A stretch of 52,027 bases of DNA, filler included, from Bipalium vagum (lineage: Eukaryota): assembly GCA_037834085.1 (NCBI GenBank). It is 3 parts of 3 records of this genome, joined end to end, with 100 filler letters (N's around TTAATTAATTAA, not from the genome) between each part and the next. Parts side by side here need not be neighbours in the genome. Positions count along the whole stretch, not along the records: positions 34,618 to 52,027 come from JBBMKC010066621.1; 2 more parts are not named here. One strand, written 5' to 3'. The position numbers and the translations under genes are program-made. Under the pieces are notes generated by a model. It had not been told where the DNA came from. It ran no database searches and worked only from the letters and a program-made list of their open reading frames with translations. Below are positions 9,487-50,395 of the stretch, piece after piece. Each line of letters starts with the position of its first letter. Positions within the stretch are counted from its first letter, which is position 1.

Positions 9487-9571
9487 CGACCAATAGAAAT
9501 TGAGCAGCTTCACGTTTATTGGTCAGTTCAATTTGTTAGTCTCGCTACCTATACAAACGCTGCTATATAAA
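9487..9571 (+). promoter_or_regulatory. Hmx core promoter: two oppositely oriented CCAAT boxes plus TATA box
   Basis: GACCAATAG (CCAAT 9490-9494), ATTGGTCAG (reverse CCAAT 9518-9522) and TATATAAA (9564-9571), ending 44 nt before the ATG at 9616; locally more GC-rich than the flanks. Confidence 0.65.
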
Positions 9572-9615: not shown

Positions 9616-10831
9616 ATGACAGATTCCAGCAAGTTGACACAGTCGCAATTTTCCATTGATCAATTATTAAATGAAAATTCCTGTGAAAATATCGACAGAA
9701 ACTCAGAATTGACATCTAAAGATCAAGATTTAAAAAATCCATTTTTTTCAAATCGATTGCATACAAACCTTTTCCTTAATAGTGGTAATGGGCTTTATTT
9801 TCATTTTCACTTTATTAAATATGTTAATTTTAGGAAACAATAGATTTTTTAATCGAATTATCTGCTACAAAGACCTACAAAATAAGCTAAATAAAGGATC
9901 TGCAGATTCCGGTTTATCGAACATTTTCCCACAGAACTTCAATTTTTCTTTGAACAATCCTTTGGGAAACATTTTACCTAACTTCTTGTCAAAGTCCAGT
10001 AACTTAAATTTGGGAATGATGAGAAAGTCAAAATCGTCACCGGATTCCATGTCCAATGAAACAAATAAGAAAACGAAATTGATCCACTATTCTTCGACCA
10101 ATGTTAATAATGAGTATCAAAATGAAAAATTAGAAAATAGATTTTTATTAAACACAAACAGTCATAGTGATCAGAGAGATCTAGAAGAGATCTGTAGAGA
10201 TTACAATGAAGAACCAATTGACAATGAAGGTGATAATTTTTCACAAGCTTCTGAATCCGAAGATGGGAATTTAAGTCCGAATAACACAAAATTATCTTTA
10301 CGAAGAAAAAAGAAAACCAGAACGGTATTTTCCAGAAATCAAGTTTTTCAGTTAGAATCGACTTTTGATTTGAAACGATACCTGTCCAGTTCTGAACGGG
10401 CTTCTTTAGCTCATGCATTGCAACTGACAGAAACACAAGTCAAAATCTGGTTTCAGAACCGAAGAAACAAATGGAAAAGACAATTGACATCAGAAATTGA
10501 AGCTGCTAATATAGCAGCTGCAAATCTGGTAGCAAACAGATTGACAAATCCAGTTCCACCAATGCTTTATCCTGCACGGTCTACTGGTTCTTCGGGTTCA
10601 AATTTAGTCAAATCTTCAATGTCAGCAAACTTTTACTCCACATTCTCTCCAGACGGTAACGATCTGAACAAGAGCAGTATTCTTAGTACATCATCAATAA
10701 TAAACACGTCGAAAAACAATTTGAATGCATTCTCTCCATTTTTAGGTACGGGGTCGTATCTTTTTCCCAATGGTTATGGAACTAATGGTGAATCCTTATT
10801 AAAAAATTGTGGAATGTCAAATTATACTTGA
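9616..10831 (+). CDS. Hmx: Hmx / NK5 family homeobox transcription factor, 388 aa, 2 exons (9616-9784, 9834-10831)
   Basis: Homeodomain [60 protein letters not shown] is followed by the Hmx-typical LTSEIEAAN and a PVPPMLY motif. N-terminal eh1 motif FSIDQLL. A 49-nt phase-1 GT-AG intron (9785-9833) joins ORF 9616 to ORF 9782 in frame (G|GA AAC AAT). Confidence 0.95.
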
Positions 10832-15643: not shown

Positions 15644-15763
15644 GCATTAAATTATTATTATTANNNNNNNNNNNNNNNNNNNNNNNNNNNNNNNNNNNNN
15701 NNNNNNNTTAATTAATTAANNNNNNNNNNNNNNNNNNNNNNNNNNNNNNNNNNNNNNNNNNNN

Positions 15764-16719: not shown

Positions 16720-17175
16720 TTATTATTACAATTTGTCTAATGAAACGACTATCTTTTGGAGTTTCCAGCACGTTTCTACACGTTTCCATACGTCGCTTTG
16801 TCTGATTTTTGGTCAAATCATGAGGTACTTCTCTACATCATTTGTTGACCTGACCGATTGCTTTAAGGTGTAAGATAACTGTTACTTTGGAAATACCTAG
16901 ATTAGCGACAATATTGGTGCTAGTCGATAGTTTGGCTACAATGTTGCATTGTGCTTCTTGATTCACAGTTACTGGCCTACTAGAACGTAATTGATCGTAT
17001 AGATCATTATCACCTTCATTAAATTTTTTAAACCAGATATACCAATTGAGACCACACCTTCACTTTCGTACATGACCTACAATTATAACCTTTGATAAGT
17101 GCCGATATGGTGTTAAGCAGAGTGAATAATAAAATACAGATATACGCTTCCAAGTGTATCATTTCTTTGGCTCAT
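16720..17175 (-). mobile_element. Decayed mariner, N-terminal half
   Basis: WFKKFNEGDNDLYDQLRSSRPVTVN...LGISKVTVILHLKAIG...REVPHDLTKNQTKRRMETCRNVLETPKDSRFIRQIV (WVPHEL-like linker). Confidence 0.75.
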
Positions 17176-22489: not shown

Positions 22490-23230
22490 TATTCTCAAAA
22501 GTATCGTCCTCTAAGGAAATAAGTCATTGGTCGGTAAAGGTGGTAATCGCTGGGTGCTAGATCCGGACTGAATGCAGGATGTGGTATAATTTCAATTTCT
22601 TCTAATTGGGTAATTTTATTTTGCCTTACTCACGCAGTATGCGGACGAACATTATCCTGTTGCAGAAGTATCCGCTTTCTGTTGACTAAAGCAAGATATT
22701 TTATGGCTAATTGTTTGTACATCTGATTGAGCTGAGCAGAATATAACTCAGCAGTAATGGTTTGGCCATCTGGAAGTACTTCGAAGTATATAATCCCCTC
22801 AAAGTTCCACCACATGCACAACATGATCTTTTTTCCGAACCTATCTTGTTTTGGAAACGCCTTGGGCTTCTGGCCTGGTTCCAACCATTAATTGATTCCA
22901 ACCAAACCTGTTCGGATTATAAAAATATATTCATTTTTCGTCGCACGTGACTATGCGACGTATAAAGCGTTCATCATTTGGATTACTTAATAATGGAAGA
23001 CAGATCGACAAACGGCTTTTAGCTTTACTTGACGTCAAATCCTGCGGTACTAGAGAAACGCGCTTGTATCATTTGTTATGTTGATGTAGATGACAATATC
23101 ATAAATGGAAATGATCAAAAATTTCTTATAGCCTCATTTTGATGGAGTTTAACTTAGCGAGGTGTACTTGTAGATGAACTGCCCGTTTAAAGGTTTTGTC
23201 AAAATTTCCAATTTTTTATTCATTTCTCTT
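22490..23230 (-). mobile_element. mariner transposase pseudogene (catalytic region well preserved)
   Basis: GKKIMLCMWWNFEGIIYFEVLPDGQTITAELYSAQL...RILLQQDNVRPHTA*...IIPHPAFSPDLAPSDYHL; upstream RIVTCDEK-like segment near 22960-22940. Confidence 0.9.
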
Positions 23231-34290: not shown

Positions 34291-34819
34291 TCGTCTAAAT
34301 ATCCGACATTTAAATCAAAGTAGGTCCTAATAATTCCACAGCTAATAAAAATAAAATAACGAAGAATATTGTAAATTTATTTCTCATATATTTTAAATAA
34401 TTTTTAAACCGTTTTATATTGGGTAGTTGCATTAAGTCTTGCTGTTTTTTAAAGAAAATAAAAAAATTAAATAAAAACTCAATATACATTTATTTTTACA
34501 TGAGATGTCAAGCAAAANNNNNNNNNNNNNNNNNNNNNNNNNNNNNNNNNNNNNNNNNNNNTTAATTAATTAANNNNNNNNNNNNNNNNNNNNNNNNNNN
34601 NNNNNNNNNNNNNNNNNCAATAACTTATATTTACAGTGTACGGAATTAAATGTTCAAATAAAAGAGGTGTTCATTTATGCAGGTTTCACTGTATTTAATA
34701 ATTAATTACGTAAAAAAACATTTTAAATTGAATTTACGATTAAAAATCGATATTTTTTGTTTGAGTCTATTTCAATGGCCAAGTACTGTAAAACAGTACT
34801 CAAACATTTTTGCACCGAA

Positions 34820-35728: not shown

Positions 35729-36240
35729 ATGCAAAAAGTGGAATCATACGGCATTTCTAAAAAAATGATTGAAAGCATCGGAGACCTCTAGAATAATATG
35801 TGAATTTGAAGGTGAAAATGCTATGAATTGCAGGCTTGCACAATCTTGGTATCGTCTATTTGAAAGTTCTGATGATGATAAGCCGAAATCGGACAGACAT
35901 CGGTCAATGAGACTGAATTCATAAAAGATACAATTGTATTTATTCGACAGAAAGTACTAGACAATTATCATAGGAGCTAAATATCCCTACAACAGTTGTG
36001 TTTCGTAGTCTTAAAATGCTTTGAGCACGATATCAAAATCTTTTACAAATACTAATTTAACACCTGAACAACAAAGAGACGTTTAAGTGTTTGTCAAACC
36101 TTACAGAACTATCCAAGGGACATATGGTTTTGGCGAAAAATAGTTACATGAGACGAAATAAGAATTTATTATGTGTCCGTTGATAACAATAAACAATGGC
36201 GCCTGTCTGATGGACCATTGGTCCCTGTCCTTGAGCAGTC
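35729..36240 (+). mobile_element. Decayed mariner, N-terminal half (same family as 25440-25900)
   Basis: CEFEGENAMNCRLAQSWYRLFES...WFWRKIVT*DEIRIYYVSVDNNKQWRLSDGPL; shares VSVDN.KQWRLS with the 25.8 kb copy. Confidence 0.75.
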
Positions 36241-36502
36241 AATGTTCCAAATGAAAGTTCTGGAGAATCTCCAGGCCAAATATATATAAGGAGATATTAT
36301 TAGGATTCAAAAATTGTATTACTGATTTTGAAGCATGTTTAGGATAATTATCATGAATCAATTTAAACACTTTGTTTGGAAAAACCAGCGCAACAACTAC
36401 AATATTATGAATAGCTTTATCTTGATATTTCTGGGAATTTAAAATTCCATTAGTTCGTCTAAGTGGACCAACTCCATTTGTAGAAAAATACAATTTTTGC
36501 AC
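36239..36502 (-). mobile_element. Tc1-like transposase fragment
   Basis: GVGPLRRTNGILNSQKYQD...IHDNYPKHASKSVIQFL, then a frameshifted WPGDSPE. Confidence 0.75.
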
Positions 36503-37368: not shown

Positions 37369-40300
37369 AAGTCAATGAATGCATCCAAAATAACGGAGGA
37401 TGTAATCATATTTGCAGAAATGTTGAGGGATCCTTTTTCTGTGACTGCCATCCTGGATGGCAGCTGGGAAGTGACAATCGATCATGTTATAGTAAAAACA
37501 TGTTGCAAGTTGACATTGAATATATTTACTATTTAGAAGTAGATATGGAAGTTGGAGATCCTTGCAAATATGGCAATGGTGGATGCACCCAATTGTGCAA
37601 GTCAACCGTAGACAAACAACCCATATGTTCTTGCTTAGATGGTTTCAGCTTAGAGCCAGATAAGTTGACTTGCAGCGGTAAAATTAACCTTTCTGAGCTA
37701 TTTGGTCTTACATTGTCTTCAGATGAAAATGAATGCATTACTGGAAGACATAGGTGCATCTCTCCAGCAACTTGTGCTAATGATATCGGCACTTACAGCT
37801 GTGTCTGTCCGATAGGGTTTCATTTGAAAAAGGATAAAATGTCTTGTGAAGGTAATGAGAATGACAAGATGAAATTGGAATTACGGGATTGTTTAAGATG
37901 TGGATGAATGTCTGAATTATGCTGGAGGTTGCAGCTATAGATGTATGAACACTGAAGGTTCTTACAAATGCATTTGCTTACCAGATGAAATTCTGGGGCC
38001 AGATAAAAGAACTTGCATAAGTATCAGTAAATTTATTATGTAATATAAATGTGAAACACGTATTACACAAAACTCACAATGAGCTTCAGTACAGTGTTCT
38101 ATTTAGTTCTCTATGGACCTCTTTTTCTATTGAACGGAAAGCTATCTTCAATCAATCAACCAACAGAAAGGCATTCTTTACATAACTTTACTGATAGAAT
38201 TTCATGGTCAAATGATTTTCAGAACATTAATCTATATATTCATCATTGTTTTTCTGTAAAACCTTAACTCTTGTATAATCAATGTGAACTTTGGCAAGCC
38301 ATACCAGATGAAATTCATTTAATCATTCTCCTTGCTAATCTGAATTCATAAGCAAAACTATTCTTCAAGAGCCTTAACTCATTTAAATGAATGATATACA
38401 TAAACTGAAAAAGAAAAAAATAACAATGTTTCAATGATATGTGACATTAACTATTGTTTTTTAATCCAGAGCCGACTGCTAATGAAGTCAAGCCTATGAA
38501 AGGTACTATAATTATTTTGTTTTATTGAACTAAATTTATGAAGGTTTTGAATTTTATTTGTAAATGAAAATTATTTTTACTACACCTGTCCTTTGTAATC
38601 CTTTCTCAAACCAGTAAATATTAATAAATGTGGTTTGGATAAATAGAATGAAATAGGTCCAGATTTTTTGGACATTCTTTCATGCGCTGTCAAAAATCGT
38701 GGGACAAATCTGTTACATAATTTTCTGATTCCAATACTCTCTAGGCATGTCCTTGCTTAAATTAAGTTTAGTTGAAAGCTCTCTCTGGATAATTCGCCTT
38801 TCTTCTTTAACGATTATCTTCAATTTTTCTATTTTTGTTCCCCAATTTCTGTAGGTCGTCTACTTTTTTCTTCGTCAAACACATTGTTCATTCCACAGGA
38901 AAACTCTCTGATTCAATTGTATACAATCCGCTTGCATGGTGTTTCATTTCCACATGCTTCCTCCAGTTGAGAAATAATTTTCTTTTTTCTCTTCTTCAAC
39001 AGCAAAAACCGTATGACTCTTCAAAATTCCACTTGATGATACATTTTTTTAAAAAAGTCGTACCTAATGTCAACAAAAGCTTACCACTTAAAACAAATAC
39101 ATAATAATAATTACCTATATATATTAATTAATTTATTTCTAAAATTTCATGAAATTCCTAATTATATTTCCATACATGTCAAAGGACTTGTTATTCACAC
39201 CACGTATTATTGAATAACACAAGCCTACAAAAATTTTTTTAATAAACCATAATGATTGTTTGACTAAATTAATTATTATTTCACATCATTATCGGTCTTT
39301 CCGGTTCATGATCTTGACGAATAAGTTTTATTATTTTTTTTAAATGTAACATTTTAATAATAATCGTTATGTTTTAAACTTTGAGTTTGATACTTATCCA
39401 ATTATTGATTATCAGTTTTCTTTTCGTTAATATTTATTAATAATAAATATTATATAAATATTAATAAATATTATTTTTATAGTAATAGAAAAATATTTCA
39501 TTTTCCATTTAAAATTATAATTCTTAAGGAGGTGCGGTTGTTTAAATGATTTTATTTTTATTTTAAATTTTCCGTTATGTTATGAGGATCTTTAAGTCTT
39601 CAGAAAAATACTGTGCATAGGAATTTGGATATTATTGTTTAAATTGAGTTATTTTAATTTTAGTTTTAAGCATAGGTTGTCGCTACAGACAATATTTTGA
39701 GCCTGTACAAAGTGTATATCATAAAATGGCTCTTCTGAAAGACACATGTCATGCCTATCAGGTAGATATTTTGGAATTATTTGTCCTTGAAGCTCGATAC
39801 TCCAGTTTACACTGAACAATAGAAAAACTCCACAATCTTAAGAAATTTATAGGGTGAAATGAGTTTTACTGTCTTTTTCAGTTTTTATTCATAATGTTAT
39901 TGTATTGAATATTCTTTTCCTATTTTCAATTATTTGTATTTTAAATAGTAAAAAATTCTTATTTCTTTACGAAATAATAAAAAATGACCTTAACATTTTC
40001 ATTAAATATTGGTCTTGTTGAATAAGCAAGGAGAACATTTAATGATCACCTTTGCTAACTTCCATTAATTCACCATTACAAAAGCTCAGGCTACTGAGAT
40101 CATCTTGCAAATTGTTGGGTCTCATTAATCAGTTCACATATTCCATAATTTCCAAAAAATCTTTTATTAATATATTTTTCCTTTAAATACGCATTGAATG
40201 TTTTTATTTTTTCTTTGACTCAAAATTTGTGAATACGAATTGATTAATTAAATTCATGTGGGGCAGTGATTCTCAATCTTTTAAATTTTTCACTTTTAAA

Positions 40301-43300
40301 AATTTAAAAATTGGTACATTAACCTTGAGATAAATCTAATAGACTTCTTCCTGCCTGAACTTTATTCGAGAAAATAGTTTGTGAAAATGATTTCCCATCC
40401 GAGATTTTTCAGACGAACTAAATTGTTTTCCTAAAACGTTTACCTGGTTGAATTTTATTGATAATGATTTTTGAAAGTAACCTTTGGTGCCAAAGGCGGT
40501 CATTTTAATGACATCATATTTAAAATATAAATTTTTGTAATATCTGTGTTTAAATAAAAGTATAAAAAAATTATTTGGCTTTTTAATTTTTATGTATGGA
40601 AAAATAGCGACTTAAAGTAGTAAAGCTTCTTTTGGAAGACCCTGTATTTTCGACGAAAAAACAATTTTTTGTATGAAATATTTTTACTTCCTTCGGGGGT
40701 TTGCTCATTAGCCTGGAACTTCATTCTTACCTTGTTATTTTTTATATATTTTTTTACAAATCTACAGAGTATTTTAATTCATTCTTAACGATTGAAAATA
40801 CTTTGATTTTAATGTTTCTGTAAATACTTGTCATAAAATAAATATTAAAAGTTGCTTAAGAAGTCTAAAACTAATGCACCTTAATAAGTTTTATTATTAT
40901 TATATTATTTTTTGAAATGACTGCATTTTCATAATTTATTTTGATACAAAAAAGAATAATTGTATACAAATATCTTATAAAATAAGTAAAATAATAAATA
41001 ATAATATATTTGTTTAATGTTAAATATCTTTTTCTATCTGATGAGAAATAAACAAGATCTGTGTGAAGTTCTCAGAAGAAATGTAAACAGAAATTGGTAA
41101 TATCGAACTCTGCAAATCGTAAAGTAAACAAACTCTGTGGTGACAGAATTTAATGAATATTACAAGACCATCAATGGTTCTTATCATTTCACTGGTTTTA
41201 CTGACCAAAGTATTTACTCTTAGTAATATGTTAAACATTTAATTTAATTGAGCTTAATTATATTAATTAACGAAATATAAAAAGTACAAAAAGTATTTTT
41301 ATTTGGTAAGTTTTCTCGATATTTCTCATTTTGAAATAAACCTATTCCTATTGACGTTGATTGATCATATCTTTCTTCACTTTTCTATTCTAATTTCTTT
41401 ATTCTTGTCTTTTCAATGATTGTATCTTGCAGATCCATTTCAGTGTCCTAAAGGAACCTTTGGAGATCATTGTGCTTACAAATGTCATGATTGTCTGAAT
41501 GGAGGGTATTGTAATAAAAATCAATCTGGATGTCTGTGTCCACAGAGATATTCAGGGGCTGTTTGTGAAATTGACTGTGTGAAGGTTAGCTACTTTTCAT
41601 GAAATATATGATCGATCTATTAACATATTATAAAAATTTGAATGATTACCCTATTAATTAGATATTATTCAAACAAATTGATTTATATTTCAATTCACAA
41701 TTATATTTCGATATCTCACTAAATCTATTTTAAATAAATCCGCATTATTTATTTATATATATAAATGTAGCGAATTCCAAATTCATTATCTTCATTTAAT
41801 TGATTTTTAATTTTTGATGTTGTATTGTCTGATTATTTTTTTCGTGTAGAAAAAAATTTAATAAAAAAACAAGATTTTTTTGAAGAAAATAGTAGCATTT
41901 ATTTATATTTGTTATTTTTTAGAATCTTTTGATGGTGGAATTATCCATAAATGATTTCCATAAAATATTATATAATTATATTGCATAATAATTTTGTCAG
42001 AAATTTCATATGCGCGTTCAGTATTTGGTCATCAAAAACTGACTGTCTCCTCTGTTTAAACAGTGTAATTCACTTTTATATTGTTCTATGTGAAGGAGAG
42101 TTCTCATCACATGGCTTTTTCAATTGGGAAAATTTTTTCATTGGGAGCAAGGCGTAATACCAGGATATTTATAACTCTGCGATATTCCACTGTATCAATC
42201 ATGACTTGCACTAAATTACAAAATCCAGCGAATGTCAATATAAATTGTAATGGTAATTTAAAACAAACCACACAAATTAAACCTATAACAATATAGCTAT
42301 ATAAACCTATATAATAGTTACAATAGAAATTTTATTTCATGACAAAATTATATTTCCTTCGCACATATTGCACGTACTTATTGGGCGCACCATGTAAAAC
42401 ATATTATTGCAAACGAAACTTAAGTCACTATTTCAAATAATGATTAAAGATAAATACTCTTACATTGTGGAAAGGGATATTAAATTGGTGTGCAAATAAT
42501 TTTAATTTAATAAAAAAACTAATTGACAATAAAATGTATTGTTATAATTATATAATTATATAATATTATTAGAAGAATTATTGTTAATATTTCTACTCAT
42601 AAAAGACATACAGTTAAACCTTGTTATAAGAGACTCATTATAATGGATACCTCTTTATAAGGGATAAATTTAGATGAAATGTAACTGTAATAAATTTGAG
42701 TATGAAAACTAAGTTATTCCCTGGCTTTAAGGAACCAACGTTATATGGGGAAAATTTTTATCTTACCTGTTTCTATCTTTCTATAATTTGATATTTTAAG
42801 TAAACTTATTTTTCATAATAATGATATTTCATAAAGGTTATATAGATATTGTTTCATTTATGTTAATTTTAAAAATGAGTAAACAAATCTCAAGAGAAAA
42901 GGGAAAATTGTAAGAGATCAGAAGAATTGTAATTTTCAAGAAACAGCTATATATTTTTCAAAAATCTTTAAGAGAACAATCAATAATAAGGTCCTAAAAA
43001 TATCATAAATTTAATTGATGACAGATACAAATCAAAACGATTAATTTAAAAGATCCCGAAACCTAAAATATGAAGAAATAGAAAAGTCTCTGAAAATATT
43101 ATTTCAGTCAGTTGACAAAAAATATATAAATGTAAGAGAAGATATTATCAAAGTACAGACTTCTAAGTTTGAAACAGAGTTAGATATTGAAACTTTTAAA
43201 GAATCAATCGGCTGGCTTGTTAAATTAAAAAAAAGATAAATCTTAATTCAAGAGTCATTTCCTAAGAAAGTGGAAATTTAAATCTGATTGAGTATGTAAT

Positions 43301-46300
43301 CTTTTCCTGTTTTTGTAAAGGATAAATTTTGGTTTTCCCGAACTGTTCCTTATAACGAGAGTTGATTATATCGGTTTATAGAATTTTCGATCTATTAAAT
43401 ATTTTTGTCAATCAATTAAATAATTAATAAAATATTTTTAATTAGAAAACAACAAATAACAATTTGTATTCATTAATGTATTTAATTTAAACATTTAATA
43501 AAATAGGAAAACATTTTCTTAAAAAAGACCCACAAAGGGCTTCAGTGTATGACCTGAATTATCATCTGGTTTTTTAGGTAAAAAAAAAATAATGTCAAAT
43601 TAACGAACGTCATGAAAGGTTGTAATATAAAAATAAAAAAGAAATATTCAAACAATTCATTTATTTATAATTTCAATTTTACAAGTAATAAAATGTAGAT
43701 TTATTAATGAAGATTTAATATTTTTTTTAAAACTTAATTAAAAAGTCTCGTTATAAATTGATAATATAATTATTATTTATGGATACGAATAAACTTTACT
43801 AAATTGTTTTTTCTGTAATTTAGAATCCAAGTTCCTTAGACTGTCAAAATTCGTTATGCACTTGTCTCAACGGTGGTGTCTGTAACTCCGAAAATATGAG
43901 ATGTATTTGTCCACCAGGAACCTCAGGTGAAAACTGTGAAATCGGCTGTGAACAGGGAATATTTGGTGAAAACTGTAAAAAGAAGTGCCCAACTATTTGC
44001 ACTTCAAATCGCTGTCATCGAATAACGGGAAAATGTTTGTGTTACTCAGGATGGTATGGTACACAATGTCATTTACCATGTCCTCCAGGAACATGGGGTA
44101 TAGGGTGCTCAAAGATATGCTCCTGCTTTGAAACGAATAACGATGGTTGTGATCCACAAGTTTATCTTAATCGAGTATATAGACAAATATAACTTTTTTT
44201 AGACTGGACATTGTTTATGTAAAACAGGTTTCCATGGTAAAGCCTGTCTTTTGAAATGCTATCCTGGCACATTTGGTAAAAATTGTCTGCAAAGATGTCC
44301 TCCTCAATGTAAAGAATCTTGTGATTCAGAAACTGGTCAATGTCCGGACCAAACCTGCAATTCAAATAGTTCCACGGCCTGTCAACTAGGTTTTAATATT
44401 CTTATAATAGGAATTAATGTTTTTTAATGAAACCAAGTATTTCTTGATAAATATTACCAAAATCATCCAGCGAATATAGAATTTTCAAATAATTTCTCCT
44501 TCACAATTAAAGACTAAAAAAGAAAATGACAAAGAAGATCACGTCAGAGAAAATGTGAAAATATAAAAATGTAAAATATATATAAATAATAAAAGTGTAC
44601 TTCATAGATTAGGCTAGATTTTTAGTAAAAATAAAGTTAAAATTATATATATTTCAGGTTTATGTTCTTCAAAAATCTCTTTATTACAAAGATGTAATAT
44701 TTTATTTACTGACAAATTCTCATTAGAGAATAATCAGAACTCAAATCCGAATTTATTTTAAAAGTTAAAATTAAACATTTTATTATTAATAATTAATTTT
44801 TAATATTATTTCGAACATTTCATTTGATATTTTGGAAAAAATTTGAAAATCTTTTAAAGCACAAGTAAATCTTCTGAAAAATGTGCACCATCGATTGGTC
44901 AGTTTCATGATGTCATCAGGAAAGAATTCTGTGGGTTGTTGACTGAAATATTATTCTTCGCGATCCTCGATATTTTCTAAAGACTGAAATTCTTTGTCAT
45001 GTTAAACCATTCTGTTAGGATTGTAATTTGAAGTAAAATGTTAAATTTATCCTTGGTTTAATACCATTTGAAATGTTACCATTACACTTATAATCAATAT
45101 CTTACCTTAACTTATCTTCTTTCTTTCGAAAAACAATAATTGATTTTGTTAGCATAGTCTTGAAACTTTGATGAGCAAAATCATTTCAGATTGTCCACAA
45201 GGAAGCGGAGACTGCAAAAAAGTCTGTGACTGTTCAGATAATACTGTGCATTGTGATGAAAAGGATGGAATATGTCATTGTGCTGCCGGATATAGCGGGA
45301 AAAGGTGCAGCGAAAGTCAGACATTGATTTATGTTATATGTTAAATAATTTTCAATTAAAATTCAAAAAGGTGTTTTGTGACAAATCAAATCATTTTCGA
45401 ACATTGTTTTAAAACATAATTTGAATTTAAAAAATAATCTTGGTATTTCATATCATGACCGGAAATTTTGTTTATATTGAACTGTTTTATCGGTTTTACA
45501 TTTTATGTAAGCTTTAAAGTTTTAAGCTTAAATTTTCAAATTAAAAATATCGTTTTGTTTTAATAATCGAAATTAAAAAGTAAAATCAAAATTTAAAATT
45601 AAAATTATCATTATTGTCATTTCAATGTCAGTTTTTCAAATAACAAATGTCAATCACTTTTTGTATAGAAAATATACATTCCAAAGTGGCCTTGATTAAT
45701 TAGTAAAAGTGCATGGTATATATTATTAATAGTACAAAGTTATGTGGCATTTCCACATGGAGTTCAATTAATATATTGGCACTAGTCTTAAAAAGATGAA
45801 CTATCAGAAAAAAATGAATAATAAAATCACTACTGGCAAAATGTTCAATTATCATTACTTGTTTGCTTTCCGTCAACCCCTTAAAATTACACAATAATCC
45901 CTTTTACATCATTTATTATAATTATTATCTTAAAAGTTTCAATATGAAAATCTGGGATCTGTCAAAAACTGAATTGGAAGCCTTAAGATTTTTAAAAAAC
46001 AAAAATAACGACATAAAAGAAAAAAATTAAAAATAACAATGATCTGGAAAGATGTCTGTGACAGGATATTTTGGAAATGTGATATCCTCAATTGTAAGCA
46101 TCCAAAAACTGGTGTCATCGAGAACGGAATTTGGGGCGAAATTGCGTTGTAGATTGGACTAATTATTAATAGAAAAACCAATGTTTTTCACGAATTTTAC
46201 CACCAGATGAAAAGGAGAAGGCCATCGAGGAACAGCGCGTCATCATCCTGAAAGGTATTTTTCAGCAATCATATGAGAAATCATACTTCTCAATATGTTG

Positions 46301-49300
46301 ACATCTTCGACATATAATCATTATTATGAGACTGTTTCTCCAATTATTATATAGTCTTAAAGAGTTGACGGATAACAAACAAGTGCCAAATTATTTCCTC
46401 ATTAGTCTAAAACATCTTTTATTCGACCTTTCTGGAATTATAAACTTATTCCTAACTGAGGTCGATGGAAGGTTTTATTTAAGTATTAAAAATGGAAATA
46501 GACAAATTTTTTTTGGTGGATATTGCATCAAATTTCTGCTTATAATTTTTGGTGATCGGAGACAAAAATGATCCAATTTTTAAGTGAATTATTACAGAAG
46601 ATAAAAATTATCAAATAAAATGTGGGAGTCCTGTAACAGGTCTTGAAGGAGAATTACAACAAAAGGTATTAATGTTTGTGGAATAAGCCGGGAATAGTTT
46701 ATCATGTTCCCTTCTATCTTGATAGCCAAACTATAGCTTCTGAACATTGTAGTACACATTTAGTCTCAAAACAGCTCTAAAAGGAAAACGTGAAGATTTG
46801 ACCAAGCTGATCTTTCACCAAGACAATAAAAGACCAAAAAAATTGCTCCAGAATCTTTATAAATTGAAATAATTTTATGGGATCTTCTTGCACATCCTCT
46901 ATATCTTCCAGGTATGATACCTTCCGGTAATAATTTTTTCTTTCCCTGCCGAACTTATTTATTATAAACTTGTTCGAGTCTTTTGAAACTTATAAGGCTA
47001 GTGTACCTAAGTTTTCGTTATCAAATCGCAAAAATTCTAATGATAGACTTACGAAGTAGTCTGAACAAAAAAGTTAACTACTTTTGATAACTCGTCAAAA
47101 TCTGTACCGACAAAATATATTGTACAGGAATGTAAAATAAAAAATGATATATACTTTTAATTAATTGGGAAAAATGCCGAGGAAGAATTATGTAAAAAAG
47201 AAAATTATATTTTTCCTTTACCGATCCTTAGGTTTTATCAAGTTTCATTAACAGCTATGAGGATTGTTGTCGTAAATCTGCAAATGTTTTTAGTGTTACA
47301 GTGTAAATTAATGCTTTTTTTAATTTAAATTAACGAATAATACCACTGTATTTATTTCCATTTATATCCAACTCGAGGCTAATTATGTGTGCTCACTTTC
47401 CACTTTGATCTTTTATTATTATTGTTTGACGAATACTGGTCTCAAGTTGTTTCTTATTTTTATTGATACTTGTAAATTTTCGTTCATTTGCGTAAAACTG
47501 GAAAATGTTAACAATTATTAATTTAACTTAAAAAATCATTAATTTACGGTGTAAACCCTGTACTGCTTTATTGTAATCTTCAGCTTATAAAAATGAATTT
47601 AAAAAAATGATCTGGTAGTGTTTATGTATTTTTCATAATTTAACTGGTAATGAAATAATACTTTCAGAATGTCCTGTTGGTTTTTATGGCGAAAAATGTT
47701 CATCTACATGTCAGTGTAAAAAGAAAAATCAATGCCATCATGTTACTGGGATTTGTTCTTGTTCCGAAACCACAAGTGAATGTGAAGGTTATTATATTAT
47801 CATTTTATATTAGAATTTTTAATTATAATTAGGGCAATTTTTTTTAACCTAAAAAAATATTTTTAACTTTATTATTAAAAATTTTAACTTTTAGCGTACC
47901 CCAATGCCTATTAAGGCAAAATATTTTTTAACTTAAAGAATTTTTTAAAACTTTATTATTTGAATTTTTAGCTTCATTTTAACCTTAAAGTACACAACAA
48001 AAGTTGTTTATTGTATTAAAATAGTCCGTTATAAGCGACAATCGCATAATGGCGTACATTATGGGAATCAAAATTCCTATCTTTGCAAACGATATGTTTA
48101 ACAATAGAAAAGCTTCTCTCCACAGAGCATGATGTTGGCTGACATGATTGAATCAGAGCAAAAGTTGCAGGTGGTATGTCCTCTCTATTGCTGTTGATAA
48201 TTTCACTAAGATCGTTGTTTGATAAGCGCTTTTCAATGTATGCTCTTATATTACATGGATCATCCTGGAAAAAGACTTTGGCTAGATCTTCTGCAGCTTC
48301 ACAAATTGTATATTGAGTGCTCTCAGCTTTTACTATTAGTTTGCTCAAACTCTGTTATTTTGTTAGCTGAAAAAGTTCTCCAGCCAAACTGCTGTTTGAT
48401 ACAAATTGATTTGCGCGAGAAATAAGTACCCCATTGCCTTCAAAACTTTCCACAATATGCCGAACAGTAGGAAAATATTGAGCATACCAGATACCTGAGT
48501 TTAGCCATGTACCCAACGTGTCAATACTGGCTGTGGCGGCTGACCTGTAGCAGTAAACTGCAAACGGTGACCTTTATTCTTAACAGTTACCATTTTGGTG
48601 GGAAAGTGTCCACGAAGGCGCATTGCGCAGTTATGCAGAAGGTGACAGGCACATGATACATGAAACAGTTGGTTATACATGTTCTTTAATATAGATCCGG
48701 CAAGAATCATATATTTTGCTGCATCAGTTATTAAAAGAACAAAGTTCTGCCTGTGTGTGCCAAGAAACCGAATTGCATCGTCGGTTATTAACTTTGTTAT
48801 TAAAAATGTTAACAATATTTTAACTTTAGAGCCTAAACATTTTATTTTTAACATAACTATAAATTGTACCCGTATTTTAACCTTATAAATCACGATATAG
48901 GGACCTTCGGTGACAGAAAATGGTAATAATGTGCTTATTTTTATTGATTTCTTCTACTTTATCTATTAATTGGAGAAACTTGTGTCATTAACTGTTCATT
49001 GGAAATTCTTAATGATGTCTGTTGTTTTGGATTCTAAAGGCATAATTTCGATCGATTTCACTGAACATGGAGTGAGAACATATAGTTCATATTGGTCAAA
49101 TCTCTTACAAAGTAAAAAGAAACTACAAGAGTAGATTGTTCAAACTTTATTATCTGCATGACAAACACGCCAATGCACACTAGTGTTGTTTCCATATTCA
49201 ATATCGTGGATTGCGGAATGGAAATATTAGACACCTTACATACAGTCCAGACTTCGCTCCTTGTGAATTTTATTTGTTCAATCTCTTTAAATATTTAAGA

Positions 49301-50395
49301 GGTAGTGGAGATATTTTTGAAGGAAAAGCCTCAAGATCTTGCATTTAACTAGGAAAAGTGCATAGAATTGGAAGTACATTACTATGAGAAATAGTGTCTA
49401 TATTGGTTGTATTTTTTATTACTTTCTATACGAGTGATAATATTTAATATTAAAATTGCACTAAGTAATATCTAAATAAAGTTCACATAATTTGAAAATA
49501 AATTAAAATCTTTAATTTCCGATTGCTATAGCCTGTCCTCAAGGAAAATGGGGCACAAATTGTACAAATAATTGCAACTGTATCCATAGTATAAGTTGTG
49601 ATCAAATCTCAGGATCGTGTAATTGTCTTCCAGGATATTATGGAAATCATTGTTCAATGGGTATTAGAGTGTTTTTGAATAAATAAATTTTAATTACATT
49701 CTCAGAATGTCCTAAGGGTCTTTATGGAAAACAATGTACCAAAGAATGTCAATGCCTACATGGGGATTGTGATCCCATTCATGGTACTTGTTTATGCGAG
49801 CCTGGTTGGTATGGGATGTCATGTGAAAATGCATGTGATGAAGGATATTATGGATATCAGTGTAGAGAAAAGTGTCAATGTCAGAATGGAGGCATTTGTG
49901 ATTTAAAAATTGGTAAATGCTTATGTGAACCTGGTAATTTAATAATATTATTTTACAGTCTTAAATGTCAATAAATAGGATGGAATGGAAAGTATTGTGA
50001 AATAAGTTGTCCCGATGGATTTTATGGTCAGGCTTGTCAGCAAATATGTCAATGTCAAAATGAGGGTGTATGTAATAAGGTAACAGGTTCATGTGATTGT
50101 CCATCTGGTTGGAAAGGTCAGTTTTGTGAAGAAACATGCTCTAATCATACTTATGGACCAAACTGTAATCAAGTATGTCAATGTTTACATGGAGGAATAT
50201 GCAACCAATTAGATGGAAGTTGTGAATGTCCCCCAGGCCGTTATGGAGACTTATGTGAACTGAAATGTCCACCTGATAAATTTGGATTCAATTGTTTACA
50301 ACGTTGTTCGTGTCTGCCAACCGAAAAATGTGACTTAAAGACAGGGAGCTGCACATGCCCTTCACTTGCTCAGGGAATACCATGCGAGATTAAGA
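37369..50395 (+). CDS. MEGF6: MEGF6-like multiple EGF-like domain protein (partial; 13 exons, about 748 codons in this window)
   Basis: Phase-consistent GT-AG exons: 37369-37491, 37537-37677, 37723-37851, 37898-38020 (four classical EGF units, three with a calcium-binding (D/E)x(D/N)EC start), 38470-38502, 41433-41584, 43824-44159, 44203-44389, 45190-45315, 47668-47787, 49532-49660, 49706-49933, 49979-50395 (tandem CPxGxYGxxCxxxCxC laminin-type units). The junction unit [23 protein letters not shown]...[13 protein letters not shown] matches the MEGF6 transition as I recall it (C...SFG.DC...CDDC.NGG.C....GC.CP.GW.G..C). The first exon(s) and stop codon were not found. Confidence 0.85.
38625..39205 (-). 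mobile_element. Decayed intronic mariner (irritans-like) with TIR remnants
   Basis: RVIRFLLLK...[38 protein letters not shown]...[17 protein letters not shown]; terminus TTATTCACACCACGTA at about 39191-39206. Confidence 0.65.
39676..39790 (+). pseudogene. Decayed EGF-repeat pseudo-exon in a MEGF6 intron
   Basis: After catAG (39675), across frameshifts: GCRYRQYFE / ACTKCIS*NGSSE / DTCH / [12 protein letters not shown], a damaged CxxGxYGExCxxCxCQNGxC..C.C..G..G..C unit. Confidence 0.45.
41153..41222 (+). CDS. Candidate alternative first coding exon (signal peptide) of the MEGF6-like gene
   Basis: [23 protein letters not shown] plus one A, then a GTAATA donor at 41223 (phase 1), in frame with the phase-1 acceptor at 41432. 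Confidence 0.55.
42611..43368 (+). mobile_element. Internally deleted intronic Tigger/pogo element
   Basis: TIRs TA-CAGTTAAACCTTGTTATAAG and CCTTATAACGAGAGTTGATTA-TA. CENP-B-type [23 protein letters not shown]...[14 protein letters not shown]. Confidence 0.8.
46640..47080 (+). mobile_element. Decayed intronic mariner catalytic fragment
   Basis: QQKVLMFV and [18 protein letters not shown] (WEVLPHPPYSPDLAPSD-like). Confidence 0.55.
47830..48900 (-). mobile_element. Intronic hAT-family element (CGGBP1-related transposase type), internally deleted
   Basis: [23 protein letters not shown] (CxxH), PPQPVLTRW and [10 protein letters not shown] (hAT dimerisation motif) in ORFs 48501-48893 and 48016-48348; TAGGGC terminus at 47830; repeated TTTTAAC(C/T)TT subterminal motifs. 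Confidence 0.85.
48950..49395 (+). mobile_element. Decayed intronic mariner catalytic fragment
   Basis: [20 protein letters not shown] and [14 protein letters not shown]. Confidence 0.7.

Follow-up and report, generated by a model that had tools for sequence, protein, structure and literature searches.

Does MEGF6 have a second, internal start? The question is raised by an intron lying between the two kinds of EGF repeat that this gene encodes in a 52,027-nt stretch of AT-rich animal DNA (GC mostly 17–33%; the whole stretch is hereafter the window), in which a first-pass annotation had placed a short signal-peptide exon preceded by promoter-like motifs. Our reading of the sequence is that positions 41046–41222 may comprise an internal promoter plus an alternative first exon, whose product would be a short secreted MEGF6 without the EMI domain and the calcium-EGF arm. 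We hold this reading tentatively, at slightly worse than an even chance, and consider a chance open frame to be nearly as probable.

The exons of the host gene within the window are as follows.

37369–37491, 37537–37677, 37723–37851 and 37898–38020, plus strand: MEGF6 exons A–D, all phase 1, the last four units of the calcium-EGF block
38470–38502, plus strand: inferred linker micro-exon E, 33 nt, symmetric phase 1, placed by its splice sites (donor AAG/GTACTA)
41433–41584, plus strand: shared exon F, the first unit past the linker, phase 1 to phase 0
43824–44159, 44203–44389 and 45190–45315, plus strand: laminin-type EGF exons G–I, from splice sites, Pfam and homologue matches
47668–47787, 49532–49660, 49706–49933 and 49979–50395, plus strand: laminin-type EGF exons J–M, on the same three kinds of evidence

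Joined at their GT-AG ends, these 13 plus-strand exons (37369 to 50395) give a single 747-codon open frame, and the gene continues beyond the window end. Micro-exon E preserves the frame and yields a 16-residue linker, compared with 23 residues in Macrostomum MEGF6. In a Pfam scan, exons A, C and D passed EGF_CA and exon B passed FXa_inhibition; exon F, for which EGF_2 fell slightly below cut-off, best matched residues 541–585 of Macrostomum MEGF6 and 499–545 of turbot Megf6b; and three to four of the five exons scanned past F (G, I, L, M) matched EGF_laminin, H being without a match. The order of blocks is thus calcium-type EGF, linker, and a long run of laminin-type EGF repeats. Exons A, B and D correspond in order to Macrostomum MEGF6 residues 341–382, 384–428 and 479–517, and the order is kept through F and G (A, B, D, F and G matching at 341, 384, 479, 541 and 598). 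Exons A–B are identical to Schmidtea mediterranea MEGF6 at 56 of 79 positions (~70%), a by-eye count against the sequence visible in the supplement of PMC7059952, which covers 400 of 1297 residues; the same exons are 52% and 38% identical to Macrostomum MEGF6. Because the S. mediterranea identity is the higher, the source animal is likely a triclad planarian. On these sequence matches, the gene is the MEGF6 orthologue. The S. mediterranea orthologue (dd_Smed_v6_5630) has the same block order and short linker (PMC7059952, PMC6453901), with ~20 residues between the EGF blocks (PMC6453901).

Minimal introns of 43–46 nt occur within 37492–37897 and at 44160–44202, 49661–49705 and 49934–49978; long ORFs cross them because several are a multiple of three without a stop. 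No RGD occurs in the 747 residues encoded in the window; spider and Artemia MEGF6 proteins (P0003, P0106, P0072) carry one in the linker that joins their EGF blocks.

Upstream of exon A, tblastn searches with eight orthologues (best E 0.5) did not recover the MEGF6 exons for the signal peptide, the EMI domain and the first EGF units. The absent 5′ part, ~320 residues in S. mediterranea and about the 5′ third of the gene, lies outside the window, and its absence reflects either an intron of >37 kb that nests a homeobox gene or a scaffold mis-join or gap at the second of two artificial joins.

9616–9784 and 9834–10831, plus strand: two-exon homeobox gene of 388 codons (Pfam Homeodomain), presumably of Hmx/NK5 type
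15664–15763 and 34518–34617: artificial 100-base joins, each 44 N, a 12-base all-frame stop spacer and 44 N

The homeobox gene is on the same strand as MEGF6, 26 kb 5′ of exon A as counted across the artificial joins, across which order and distance are not fixed; upstream of it lie CCAAT at 9490, ATTGG at 9518 and TATATAAA at 9564. Elsewhere in the window, 48016–48953 on the minus strand holds a disrupted element that matches DUF659 weakly, short of the Pfam cut-off, and has a high copy number in the genomic run; it is likely a hAT-type transposon remnant. In addition, several apparent mariner-like remnants were seen by eye (e.g., 22500–23000, 36050–36300).

The candidate elements in the intron between E and F are these.

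41046–41139, plus strand: candidate promoter or enhancer, with RYAAACA at 41048, 41083 and 41124 and a reverse CCAAT at 41093–41097 (ATTGG at 41093)
41153–41222, plus strand: candidate alternative first coding exon, 23 codons and one base, with a second in-frame ATG at 41174
41223–41432, plus strand: candidate 210-nt intron, GTAATA ... TTGCAG, acceptor AG at 41431–41432

The coding features claimed in the first-pass annotation stand: the ATG at 41153 opens a 23-codon hydrophobic frame that reaches a phase-1 donor at 41222/41223 (TTA/GTAATA, GT at 41223), and the acceptor AG at 41431–41432 places the start of exon F at 41433, to which the candidate exon can be spliced in frame. The unspliced frame is open for 28 codons, with a stop immediately beyond the donor. 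Joining 41222 to 41433 by coordinates leaves the frame open through exon F, and the computed open frame of the short form has 588 residues inside the window. A branch-point-like CTAAT lies 43 nt 5′ of the exon F acceptor. Phase-0 joins to a second AG at 41442–41443 were also in frame but gave lower peptide scores (4.3–4.8) and were rejected. The claimed position at the boundary between the EGF blocks is likewise confirmed by Pfam, with EGF_CA and FXa_inhibition exons upstream and EGF_laminin exons downstream. This position, together with the phase of the exon, favours a short isoform because both suit the dropping of one whole domain block.

The encoded peptide resembles a signal peptide, as had been claimed. 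Its best predicted cleavage is after Thr22, one residue short of the exon end, with a score of 7.31 on a von Heijne matrix; since the cut is predicted there, the mature protein would start two residues before exon F. On the same matrix, seven of 18 real N-termini scored above 7.31 and 11 below, so that the predicted peptide falls within their range. These came from 20 fetched secreted or receptor homologues, two of which were dropped because the N-terminus was not intact; two of the 18 share one N-terminus.

The base at −3 is T at both candidate ATGs, compared with A at the Hmx start in the same window, and further ATGs lie upstream at 41041 and 41081. Codon bias is uninformative, as 22% of 1160 random open frames score at least as high as the candidate, and its GC content does not stand out either (24% of 907 windows). 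An acceptor-like TTCTCAG near 41076, 77 nt 5′ of the candidate ATG, could serve spliced-leader addition, which occurs in planarians. The interval 40830–41670 showed no differences from public contigs of one DNA run, which is possibly the window's own source; the candidate region sat on one unbranched contig at a depth of 22.9 (neighbours 21.7–25.1). The summed contig depth of bin 40828–41268 was 343, so weak repeat similarity of the candidate region is possible; compared with the rest of the window, the region showed no similarity except low-complexity AT. Rfam gave no matches over 38400–43900, and Pfam none on the antisense frame 41020–41238. No MEGF6 splice junction was present among the 15 joints listed of 179 in the run, which behaves as genomic DNA.

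Upstream of the candidate ATG, the three RYAAACA motifs and the reverse CCAAT were found where the first-pass annotation had put them; we take RYAAACA to be a forkhead-type motif and ATTGG to be a reverse CCAAT. Three RYAAACA motifs within 110 bp is the sole such instance in 96 kb of non-coding sequence on both strands, and its chance under a Markov model is ~1e-4 per ATG. The choice of RYAAACA is nevertheless post hoc: a GC-containing 6-mer of one kind or another is present three times in 7.5% of windows (175 of 2318), and in ~5% at matched GC (35 of 722). Two of the three motifs also lie inside an 18-nt direct repeat (83% identical) and may stem from one local duplication. The TATAAA nearest to the candidate is at 40976, and ATTGG is present; at the Hmx gene of this window, the promoter combines a TATA box with CCAAT and ATTGG. 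A sigma-70 promoter scan was disregarded, being not applicable to an animal.

How often would such an arrangement arise by chance? We took every pair of an ATG and a phase-1 GT on either strand of the 48,140 non-coding bases (96,282 strand-bases; 203 and 165 pairs) and joined each one in silico to exon F. Besides the candidate, five loci scored at least 5 and three at least 7.3; none of the five has RYAAACA motifs upstream. One of them, the minus-strand ATG at 17162, equals the candidate in every criterion for peptide and donor: its donor is at least as good, and its cut lies close to the end of the exon. From these counts, an intron of this length (2.9 kb) should hold ~0.03 loci equal to the candidate, and all phase-1 introns of the gene (11 kb) ~0.11; under relaxed criteria (score at least 5, donor within 1 unit), with three loci in 96 kb, the expectation for the 11 kb is ~0.3. 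An order-4 Markov null gave 0.0003 look-alikes per kb in 3 Mb, and it underestimates look-alikes in real DNA. By our own arithmetic, the joint chance of the peptide, cut site, domain boundary and motif triplet is roughly 0.005–0.015 per gene, comparable in order of magnitude to a reasonable prior multiplied by the fit to a real exon. The candidate thus exceeds chance moderately.

The donor does not stand out from the GTs around it. On a matrix built from 14 sites, donor 41223 scores 0.85, mid-range among the gene's real donors, and six of the seven other GTs between 41153 and 41432 equal or exceed it. The top donor of the interval is the GTAAGT at 41306, which scores 2.01 and is one of four GTAAGT on the window's plus strand.

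Taken together, these observations leave several explanations to be weighed against an internal first exon. The strongest, to which we give almost as much credence, is that the exon is never used and the frame is open by chance, the forkhead triplet being either noise or an enhancer within the intron that serves the main MEGF6 promoter. AT-rich intron DNA favours Ile, Leu and Phe codons and has weak GT donors everywhere; the locus at 17162 equals the candidate without RYAAACA motifs, and it is joined by other look-alikes in the 96 kb; the start context is poor, the donor undistinguished and the codon bias nil. Chance would, however, have to bring together the best look-alike within the gene, a cut at the exon end, a domain boundary and the only motif triplet. 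It is improbable, by comparison, that the promoter is real and uses the donor at 41306. As the best-scoring donor between 41153 and 41432, this site would leave the first exon non-coding, with an upstream frame of 28 codons, and no secreted product would result, the first in-frame Met downstream being residue 75 of F+G with a signal score of −3.4. The case for 41306 is softened because none of the window's 14 real donors begins GTAAG and four other GTAAG sites in MEGF6 introns are unused in the gene model; such a transcript would, moreover, have no evident use.

The first-pass annotation had also allowed that the gene has split in two, so that exons A–E would end an upstream EGF-only (EGFEM1-like) gene and the candidate exon would open a separate laminin-EGF gene. 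That the 37 kb upstream lack the exons for the signal peptide, the EMI domain and the first EGF units is consistent with this, as is the existence of EGF-heavy and laminin-only MEGF6 relatives (P0177, P0123). Nevertheless, the donors of D and E are in phase, the micro-exon holds all 13 exons in one 747-codon frame, and the artificial join at 34518–34617 can account for the absent 5′ part. The junction between the blocks appears intact because S. mediterranea MEGF6 is one full-length chain on a single contig (1297 aa, ~20 residues between blocks; PMC6453901) and because the 16-residue linker here resembles that of Macrostomum; a split is therefore disfavoured and, in our estimate, very improbable. 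Least probable of all is an internal cassette or poison exon, not a first exon, that is entered from the micro-exon via an acceptor at 41076 or 41147. The TTCTCAG before 41076 scores 0.6, inside the range of real acceptors, but a stop follows within four codons of entry there; from 41147, a second frame stays open to 41220 and has a phase-1 GT at 41195, but the acceptor at 41147 has no pyrimidine tract and scores −4.5. The flatworm linker is, besides, already of the right length without an extra exon.

The exon-F unit is present in 52 of 211 fetched proteins, 22 of them with an EGF block upstream, 23 starting at most 60 residues before it and seven with upstream sequence of another kind. A spliced model of signal peptide plus F was found in none of the 52, a weak test because no triclad is among them. 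Five of the 23 short-start proteins scored above 3.5 (P0062 9.4, P0094 5.1, P0061 4.3, P0113 3.9, P0105 3.8); these were set aside as unspliced gene calls because they appear to read through the acceptor pyrimidine tract, four of them stopping soon past the exon. The remaining short-start proteins look like unspliced gene calls or fragments. No triclad MEGF6 was recovered in protein searches with exon F (no candidate), a profile (38 candidates of 790) or exon G (1 of 42), nor by HMMER on representatives among the 150 listed of 168 matches. Metagenome scans gave no close locus and a single distant one at 32%, and the ESM Atlas gave generic laminin-EGF/MEGF6 clusters only. The matrisome table of S. 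mediterranea lists one contig for MEGF6, full length, signal peptide positive and pharynx-enriched (PMC6453901), which counts against a short form. Identifiers of the MEGF6 gene were absent from a planarian proteomics table.

Two MEGF6-like secreted proteins indicate that evolution can dispense with the calcium-EGF arm, if their orthology to MEGF6, inferred from sequence, is right. No EGF_CA match was obtained in the Rotaria protein P0123 (CAF3135376.1; a cluster of 14), and in the tick (Ornithodoros) protein P0030 (XP_064459433.1) just two EGF units precede the one that resembles exon F. Both differ from the case proposed here in being whole genes minus the arm that keep an EMI-like N-terminal part, not second isoforms. 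The P0123 cluster and P0030 have no transmembrane tail; some are named MEGF10 by their source, and the Rotaria one ends near an RGD.

If the internal first exon is real, transcription would start at ~41100–41170 from a promoter that lacks a TATA box and has forkhead and CCAAT sites, and splicing of 41222 to 41433 would yield a chain whose first 22 residues are a predicted cleavable signal peptide and whose secreted part consists of laminin-type EGF repeats only; the full-length form would presumably still be made via the 38502/41433 junction. In S. mediterranea, basement-membrane integrity depends on megf6, which is expressed most strongly in the pharynx, in non-muscle cells, and MEGF6 confines planarian stem cells (PMC7059952). 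As foxa belongs to a pharyngeal gene module (PMC12660999), FoxA-type control of the internal promoter in the pharynx can be imagined. This link is speculation because the Forkhead motif is enriched in parenchymal and muscle chromatin, NFY being enriched in neuronal chromatin (PMC12660999). We regard as unlikely the bolder proposal that a FoxA-type forkhead factor drives an internal promoter of triclad MEGF6, so that a secreted isoform of laminin-EGF repeats alone is made chiefly in the pharynx, alongside low-level full-length protein, with the two differing in their matrix roles. If true, it could explain why megf6 RNA is strongest in the pharynx yet knock-down damages basement membrane body-wide, and no short MEGF6 with a signal peptide of its own would have been described before.

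The alpha3A exon of LAMA3 carries its own signal peptide. LAMA3 (alpha3A/alpha3B) resembles the proposed arrangement in that a second promoter inside the gene, together with an exon specific to the isoform, gives a secreted chain shortened at its N-terminus; it differs in that this is experimentally shown and that the LN polymerisation domain is removed, whereas here the EMI and calcium-EGF units would be lost, as judged from DNA sequence (PMC9788559). Similarly, alternative promoters of C. elegans Punctin/MADD-4 and CLE-1 (A/D, B, C) produce nested secreted isoforms without N-terminal domains, and Punctin-S has its own signal peptide; these belong to other protein families, and isoform-specific sites and functions are shown for them (PMC13142758). 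ADGRB1 has a promoter in intron 17 (PMC11711277). No short MEGF6 isoform was found in searches of open-access literature, and the word 'isoform' is absent from the main text of PMC7059952.

By analogy, a short MEGF6, if real, would add one more gene to a design already known from laminin alpha3A and Punctin-S. Because the internal-promoter mechanism is common in matrix genes, the gain would be specific to this gene. MEGF6 is a conserved but little-studied matrix protein; a second promoter that leaves out the EMI and calcium-EGF arm would uncouple what its two halves do, and results from probes and RNAi aimed at the 5′ or the 3′ part of MEGF6 would have to be read differently.
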